The position numbers were made by a program, and so were the translations under genes. A stretch of DNA of 64,000 nucleotides from Eledone cirrhosa. Taxonomy: Eukaryota. Positions 13,558 to 13,918 of the stretch are shown here, piece by piece. The stretch is from the NCBI GenBank assembly GCA_964016885.1, contig OZ024742.1, positions 104,470,001 through 104,534,000 of the forward strand, read 5' to 3'. Under the pieces are notes generated by a model that was given only the letters and a program-made list of their open reading frames with translations, had not been told where the DNA came from and made no database searches. The stretch's first letter is position 1. Each line of letters starts with the position of its first letter.

Positions 13558-13559
<2 letters not shown>

Positions 13560-13910
13560 CCAAAGTTCATTGATTACTCAACGAATACAGTTTTACAATA
13601 GTTTAGAAGCACTCAACAGTAGAGTTTTCCTGGAGTTTTTAATATTATTCAAAATGTTAACAAATGAAAAATATTCGCATAATCAAAATATATACTTTAT
13701 TATATATATTTCAAAGGTACTGATTATATCAAATCATATATTGAATCATATATATGAATAATCAAGACCGTACATATATTTTGTCTGATGAGGATGTACT
13801 GAAAAAAAAAACAGCACAGTAACTTTGAAATATATATGTAATAAAGTACGAATCTAAATGATATGTATATATTTTGATTATGCGAATATTTTTCATTTGT
13901 TAACATTTTG

Positions 13911-13918
<8 letters not shown>
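13558..13918 (+). mobile_element. TA-embedded Penelope-like fold-back element
   Basis: Leader motif at 13608-13626. A ~55-bp perfect inverted repeat (13642-13696 / 13865-13918) plus an extension flanks a hammerhead fold. Confidence 0.75.
13777..13848 (+). ncRNA. Type I hammerhead ribozyme (partly decayed stem II)
   Basis: Stem I tattttgt/ataaagta; CTGATGA 13785-13791; stem II includes tactg/cagta; GAAA 13827-13830; GUA cleavage triplet at 13838-13840. Confidence 0.65.

Follow-up and report, generated by a model that had tools for sequence, protein, structure and literature searches.

The insert at positions 13558-13918 is best explained, with a probability of about 0.8, as two 3'-end stubs of a Penelope-like element (PLE) lying head to head, a fold-back scar in a (TA)n microsatellite. 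The parent element probably belonged to the Hydra clade of PLEs, an assignment that we hold less firmly than the first. We observed the two stubs, two alternative 3' ends adjoining (TA)n, a private junction, covariation in stem II of a hammerhead motif, lesions in that motif, and a fixed place for a bulged hairpin in the tail. Both the fold-back and the hammerhead are PLE debris of an ordinary kind, which a specialist would expect. The window, by which we mean the whole 64-kb stretch analysed, has a GC content of about 36%, is rich in microsatellites and contains many SINE-like repeats. Its SINE features suggest octopus-like DNA.

The insert is 361 nt long, hairpin-shaped, and set between two (TA)n microsatellites, the left target of insertion at 13527-13557 and the right target at 13915-13947. 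Other family copies also adjoin (TA)n, at about 13565 in sequencing run X2. The leftmost part is an 84-nt tail found on this side only (13558-13641, minus strand), which is the long 3' end of an inverted copy. The tail contains a conserved bulged hairpin (13609-13636, minus strand) composed of ACTC, a CAG/CTG inner stem, a 10-nt loop, a TT bulge, GAGT, and GC. Next comes an inverted and 5'-truncated copy of the element's own 3' end (13642-13722, minus strand), in which 13642 is the common short 3' end. This arm includes a hammerhead 3' half without the 5' core (13693-13722, minus strand), consisting of the stem II 3' strand, GAAA, an 8-nt palindromic stem III, UA, and the stem I 3' strand; its stem II strand pairs with the 5' strand of the direct copy at 9/10 positions. 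The junction (13723-13772, plus strand) is private, low in read depth, and built of rearranged family upstream sequence, with joints from 13772 to 13725 in other copies. On the plus strand there follow a type I hammerhead motif (13777-13848), detected by a descriptor, a 19-nt insertion that is missing from the inverted arm (13846-13864; depth of 7-19 at 13844-13856), and the short 3' end of the direct copy (13865-13918), which forms a perfect 54-nt inverted repeat with 13642-13695. Over its full length (13642-13722 versus 13817-13918), the inverted arm differs from the direct copy by one substitution, a 2-nt insertion, and the 19-nt insertion.

A sister insertion of another subfamily, here called copy 1 (12856-13124, plus strand), has the same layout, with a tail at 12856-12941, an arm at about 12942-12962 facing 13104-13124, and a hammerhead with a stable stem II at 13015-13079. 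The initial annotation stated that the inverted repeats of the two copies differ completely. Instead, their 3' ends can be aligned (37/59 columns; 7 of 5000 shuffles scored equally), and the tail at 13558-13641 aligns with that of copy 1 at a score equalled in 3 of 2000 shuffles. Reads that run from the 13558-13918 element into 3' sequence of the copy 1 type were found 246 times in run X5 and 265 times in run X6.

This layout corresponds to what is described for PLEs. According to the available text of PMC8557442, PLE insertions are 5'-truncated, often carry an inverted truncated copy at the 5' end, and have a 30-40 bp tail on one side. The 13558-13918 element has an inverted 5'-truncated copy beside a direct copy, an insertion site in (TA)n, a one-sided tail, and two 3' ends in its family, and it fits the published description at each point except the length of the tail, which is 84 nt here. 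A purified PLE protein cuts both target strands, extends them, and initiates at two internal sites between which the tail lies; the PLE hammerhead in that system cuts only when the protein is present and is dispensable for insertion in vitro (available text of PMC11167929). By this model, a PLE enzyme would have cut both strands of the target and copied the RNA from two internal start sites. The parent RNA would carry a type I hammerhead that, judging from the PLE literature, cleaves only as a dimer through its palindromic stem III or together with protein. The first cDNA would start at the long end (13558) and stop inside the ribozyme, and the second would start at the short end (13918) and stop just upstream of the ribozyme. 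The two cDNAs, made from opposite target strands, would then have been joined at their truncated ends. Because inverted arms that end at TA repeats could also be terminal inverted repeats in a TA target, we considered a Stowaway-like miniature DNA transposon with an incidental hammerhead. This reading is hardly credible, since the tail is on one side only, the junction is private, and the arms are not uniform but range from about 21 nt (copy 1) to 81 nt (the 13642-13722 copy). Moreover, compensatory changes in stem II and the absence of the motif from 60 shuffled windows argue against an incidental hammerhead.

Sequencing reads allowed us to separate family features from those of the single locus. 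Reads of 4 out of 7 public runs were mapped onto 13558-13918 at 80% likeness; X1 and X2 come from one sample, which may be the source of the window, and another study supplied X5 and X6, each a RAD-seq sample. The arm had a summed depth of up to 3.2e5 and the 5' core one of about 2.2e4, against 7-330 for the junction and the 19-nt insertion (20-330 at 13727-13765). These figures do not equal copy number and are taken only as a sign of a very abundant family with private parts. (TA)n directly precedes position 13642 in 213 (X5) and 273 (X6) reads. In X2, loose ends at 13565 occur in 12 contigs, and their consensus starts with TA repeats. Therefore, the family has both a short and a long 3' end. 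At 13722, where the arm stops, 510 and 466 reads go on into the 5' half of the ribozyme. The inversion junction at this position was not found elsewhere among the joints listed for the four runs; it is private to the 13558-13918 locus.

The private junction also bears on the idea that a non-autonomous unit, a miniature PLE or something like a retrozyme, moves as the whole 361-nt fold-back with PLE proteins supplied in trans. Several short fold-back inserts of the same type without ORFs do occur in the window, and a preprint links retrozymes to PLEs and reports non-autonomous, PLE-derived hammerhead elements (bioRxiv 10.64898/2026.07.22.740005, available part). As described there, non-LTR retrozymes resemble our element in being non-coding, in having a type I hammerhead, and in their relation to PLEs. 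However, they are head-to-tail tandem units, whereas 13558-13918 is a truncated pair arranged head to head. The 361-nt unit is not tandem, no listed read piece spans it, and the depth at its junction is near that of a single copy, so that we regard mobility of the whole unit as unlikely. The family could nevertheless be non-autonomous as a linear short element.

The type I hammerhead descriptor has only two matches in the 64 kb, at 13023 and 13785, both on the plus strand, and none in 60 locally (block-)shuffled windows. Both motifs have the core CUGANGA, GAAA, and UH in type I order. The hammerhead models of Rfam gave no match in the window, either at the gathering threshold or at E values of up to 10; for the giant squid, 235 Rfam hammerhead loci are given in the available text of PMC6962438. 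The initial annotation correctly noticed a block common to the two hammerheads, which amounts to 15 identical nucleotides, TATTTTGTCTGATGA, at 13015 and 13777, and the two sites also share GAAA, the palindromic stem III, UA, and the stem I 3' strand. The 12-mer alone, with one mismatch allowed, is not significant (two matches in 13/100 shuffles). A lone CUGAUGA and GAAAC in hammerhead spacing at 3585-3620 (plus strand) has poor helices and is perhaps a decayed hammerhead.

In the 13777-13848 motif, stem I is formed by 13777-13784 and 13841-13848, CUGAUGA lies at 13785-13791, stem II at 13792-13826, GAAA at 13827-13830, and the palindromic stem III at 13830-13839, and the predicted cut is after A13840. 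Stem I can pair at 8/8 and stem II at 8/10 positions, and stem III can be formed only as a self-complementary dimer. The predicted cut site lies 78 nt before the short 3' end; the hammerhead is thus near the 3' end, as in EN+ PLEs. The type I hammerheads of PLEs are described as having a palindromic stem III and weak activity as dimers (available text of PMC4209133 and PMC6765202). The minimal and variant hammerheads of metazoan PLEs reported by Cervera and De la Pena (2014, PMC4209133, available text) have the same CUGANGA/GAAA/UH core, a long helix II, and a palindromic helix III, and they too are mostly single motifs from truncated PLEs that vary highly within a genome. In contrast to them, the 13777-13848 motif has no extra nucleotide between A9 and 10.1, has an 8-bp stem I, has a G-U pair at 10.1-11.1, and is broken at the fifth pair of stem II.

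A complete difference between the two copies in stem II had also been claimed. This was not borne out, because both stems have 10 positions with a pyrimidine-pyrimidine mismatch at pair 4, 9 of the 20 letters agree, and both partners have changed at pairs 3, 9, and 10 with pairing retained, which makes these changes compensatory. Stem II of copy 1 reads A-U, G-C, G-C, C.C, A-U, U-A, A-U, C-G, C-G, A-U, and that of the 13777-13848 copy reads G-U, G-U, A-U, U.C, G.A, U-A, A-U, C-G, U-A, G-C. A third subfamily, seen in loose ends of reads, has A-U, A-U, A-U, C.C, G-C, U-A, A-U, C-G, C-G; it keeps the C.C mismatch with other pairs swapped, a tentative assignment read by eye from a loose-end consensus with an agreement of 0.57. 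The covariation in stem II is drawn from a comparison of few sequences.

The family majority has C at 13795 (99% of X1 depth), 13822 (99.9%), and 13826 (77%). The 13777-13848 copy carries private lesions, namely T13795, A13822, which breaks pair 5, T13826, and a longer A loop. Since the family-majority letters at 13822 and 13826 are both C, the absence of pair 5 and of the canonical G10.1-C11.1 pair from the 13777-13848 copy represents a loss. The freely variable N7 is the sole core letter seen to differ, with C in loose ends of X5 and X6. Selection on ribozyme function, which the initial annotation had proposed together with a switch, is thus upheld at the level of the family, where the stem II covariation, the canonical G10.1-C11.1 majority, and the restriction of core change to N7 support a hammerhead-type structure that was selected; for the switch it is not. 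The expected excess of conservation in the core over its flanks was found weakly: 0/11 core positions appear among the variant rows listed, against 20/124 non-core positions, a count based on 40 of 67 variant rows, with a chance probability of about 0.15 and with the stem I 5' strand also free of listed variants.

The proposed switch supposes that the upstream arm pairs with the hammerhead 3' half and toggles cleavage off and on. The idea was built on an overlap of the arm with the ribozyme 3' half (13697-13716 versus 13823-13846), which we confirmed; the direct copy has 2 additional nucleotides here. The arm is the complement of 13817-13918, and structure prediction for the 361-nt RNA gives a single long hairpin (-114 kcal/mol, z -16). 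In monomer nearest-neighbour calculations, which leave out Mg2+, dimers, and protein, the cost of forcing the hammerhead fold is 8.6 kcal/mol for the motif alone, 7.8 kcal/mol without the arm, and 15.1 kcal/mol with the arm; the corresponding values for copy 1 are 4.4-5.9 kcal/mol. The rise from 7.8 to 15.1 kcal/mol speaks in favour of a switch. However, the pair probability of stem I is 0.00 for the motif alone, with the arm, and without it. In these calculations, the arm deepens the OFF state of the 13777-13848 hammerhead, and no ON state is predicted even when the arm is removed. Mutually exclusive folds acting as a switch are therefore unsupported, given the private stem II lesions and a hammerhead fold that is disfavoured by about 8 kcal/mol even without the arm. 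The arrangement of the copies points in the same direction: the junction is private, the arm segment runs straight into the ribozyme 5' half in other copies, the arm of copy 1, about 21 nt in length, stops well short of its ribozyme, and the lesions of the 13777-13848 copy are not in the family majority. We consider a regulated switch very improbable. The 13777-13848 hammerhead is likely a decayed relic, and the inverted arm is likely a by-product of insertion rather than a switch.

The two hammerheads, at 13023 and 13785, lie on one strand at a distance of 762 nt, pairing between their stem III strands is possible (-3.9 kcal/mol), and PLE hammerheads are reported to work as dimers. A selected pair that cleaves one host transcript as a heterodimer was considered for these reasons. 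Each hammerhead, however, sits in its own (TA)n-flanked insertion within a microsatellite-rich stretch crowded with such tails, and the 13777-13848 copy is decayed; we give this arrangement almost no credence.

No Pfam family relevant to a PLE reverse transcriptase (RT) or GIY-YIG endonuclease was found in 26/29 ORFs of at least 120 aa in the window, the other three being GT-repeat frames at 54543-55352, and this absence is as expected for truncated stubs. The signature motifs of the Hydra clade, RWK, DKT, and CxCX5C without CCHH, would lie in such an RT/EN ORF. Pattern scans of metagenome contigs (0 stretches) and viral contigs detected no family members with flanking ORFs. The available text of PMC8557442 attributes (TA)n targeting to both Naiad and Hydra and reports canonical hammerheads for the latter. 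The EN+ PLEs of the Hydra clade (Craig et al. 2021, PMC8557442) have the same (TA)n target and, near the 3' end, a type I hammerhead whose palindromic stem III is short, and an inverted 5'-truncated copy like that of 13558-13918 is noted for Penelope-13_HM. In contrast to the Hydra elements described there, 13558-13918 has no ORF, a hammerhead unlike that of Hydra-1_Obim, an 84-nt tail, and a stem II that is longer, at 10 positions, and in which a C.C mismatch is conserved. Hydra-1_Obim was rejected as the direct parent because it has no sequence match. The (TA)n target is common to Hydra and Naiad and is not diagnostic of Hydra. The Naiads of Octopus are alike in target and in their inverted insertions, but they are described in the same source as lacking canonical hammerheads, and the 3' ends available there for Naiad_Obim, Naiad_Ovul, and Naiad_Omin show no likeness to our element and no hairpin by eye. 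Naiad_Ovul had been considered as a parent in view of the label 'HHR_half_core' and was rejected on its sequence.

In the tail, the bulged hairpin is situated on the minus strand, 5 nt beyond the short end; in it, ACTC is followed by a short stem-loop and a pyrimidine bulge of 2 nt, with GAGT last. A descriptor of this hairpin, drawn by eye from 6 of the 9 sites that it retrieves, has these 9 matches in the window against a mean of 0.385 (maximum of 3) in 200 shuffles, and 9/10 sites found by a sequence-only search also pair. Besides 13609-13636, the sites are as follows: copy 1 (12918-12939, minus strand; inner stem CAA/TTG, TC bulge); 5880-5904 (plus), in an unrelated-looking fold-back family where, as in the 13558-13918 element, a candidate hammerhead 3' half precedes the hairpin by 76 nt; 9564-9587 (plus), 5 nt beyond the short end of the fold-back 9431-9558; 12181-12199 (minus), 63 nt before a (TC)n run; 32775-32796 (plus) and 34587-34612 (plus), 83 and 103 nt before (TA)n; and 39242-39261 (minus) and 62611-62643 (minus), 83 and 89 nt before (AT)n. 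In 9/9 sites, a microsatellite (8 TA, 1 TC) follows at 63-103 nt, a distance that the descriptor does not require; as background, 7.5% of positions fall within a range of 60-110 nt, which was set after the distances had been seen. An inverted arm is present in 4/9 sites and ends 2-14 nt before the hairpin.

Over the 9 sites, 63/63 pair cells are paired, with compensatory changes in three inner pairs and a score reached by 0/500 shuffles; the outer four pairs never vary, being fixed by the descriptor. RNAalifold returned the same fold. Variation among the family reads is greatest in the 10-nt loop, with many substitutions and indels, and no variant is listed for the outer stems. A covariance model gave 22 further weak matches, the best of which, at 10260, is a GCTC/GAGC variant. 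The distance to a microsatellite is within the 60-110 nt range for 5 of the 22 (p 0.02) and just below it, at 56-59 nt, for another 3. For the 13609-13636 copy, the computed minimum free energy fold prefers a second, non-conserved ACTC inside the loop, which varies in the family. Folding as DNA and as RNA did not discriminate between the two for this hairpin. A possible decayed tail at 13480-13527 (plus strand) was dropped, since both the descriptor and the model missed it.

Several other fold-back elements were seen in the window. At 5217-5866, a three-armed fold-back lies among TA repeats and is followed by the tail hairpin at 5880. A candidate hammerhead 3' half (GAAA, palindrome, UA) is present in its arms, and a 5' core was not detected upstream. 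In a second family (9431-9640, 12269-12377, and 51616-51760), the copies resemble a hammerhead 3' half in which stem III is long and a GUC site is present; this is clearest at 12269-12377, and an intact or decayed tail hairpin follows. A third family (6089-6252, 12171-12248, and 34744-34905) combines short inverted arms with a tail hairpin. Two of its copies have CUGAUGA and GAAA at hammerhead spacing, and its helices gave no clean hammerhead. Two tail hairpins on opposite strands converge on a single microsatellite both at 10260-10464 and at 34587-34789, which suggests repeated insertion into the same microsatellite run. More fold-back inserts are located at 6328-6410, 12504-12585, 13125-13200, 14185-14248, and 18496-18740. 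Among repeats of other kinds, a SINE-like repeat of about 190 nt is very frequent, with more than 15 partial copies at 2425-2619 and many other places, and a tRNA-like head lies at 38648-38705. The region 15890-17500 resembles by eye a decayed LINE on the minus strand, with a diverged partial copy at 48609-48981, and its long ORFs gave no Pfam match. A U2 snRNA copy at 61414-61567 (minus strand; 75 bits) has deletions in the 5' stem-loops and is likely a pseudogene.

The bulged hairpin can be compared with published PLE consensuses. In the supplement of PMC8557442, it was recognized by eye in 3/6 new Hydra consensuses, the Hydra families that this comparison covered. In Hydra-2_Amil and Hydra-2_Ajap, the hairpin (GCTC, a 2-nt bulge, and GAGC) lies 3' of the hammerhead. 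Two such hairpins precede the ORF at the 5' end of Hydra-1_Ajap, a position that would follow if the next tandem copy began with the tail. By eye, the hairpin is near-perfect in Hydra-1_Crog, weak in Hydra-1_Amil, and not found in Hydra-1_Obim. The main text of PMC8557442 has no mention of a stem-loop, hairpin, or bulge, and our literature search, which covered few subscription papers, found no description of the bulged hairpin. The Poseidon element PAc of Anolis (Frangieh et al. 2024, PMC11167929), in its main text, has two alternative 3' ends with the tail between them, 3' of the hammerhead, as well as an AT-rich target and a stem-loop at the start region. PAc differs in that it starts inside an AC-rich stem-loop and in that its tail agrees with the 30-40 bp of PLE tails, whereas the short end here lies 2-14 nt before a bulged hairpin with a fixed outer sequence.

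We consider the tail hairpin a candidate protein anchor for the internal priming of PLEs. Situated just 3' of the short start site, it may be the point where the PLE protein binds and thereby places the internal start. A wider proposal, which we offer tentatively and at somewhat less than even odds, is that Hydra-type PLEs of the window's host, a coral, and a sea cucumber share a hairpin of RCTC, a variable stem-loop, a 2-nt bulge, and GAGY as a dock for the RT-endonuclease that fixes the start of copying. It would be the counterpart of the anchor in telomerase RNA, and the many unrelated short families of this genome in which the hairpin is kept would all use one protein. The recognition of the start site is a question left open by the first in vitro study of a PLE, and the hairpin offers a concrete and mutable candidate for what the PLE protein recognizes to start copying inside its RNA. 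It is also a short marker with which ORF-less, truncated Hydra-type inserts can be found and oriented, of which there are at least 9 in 64 kb.
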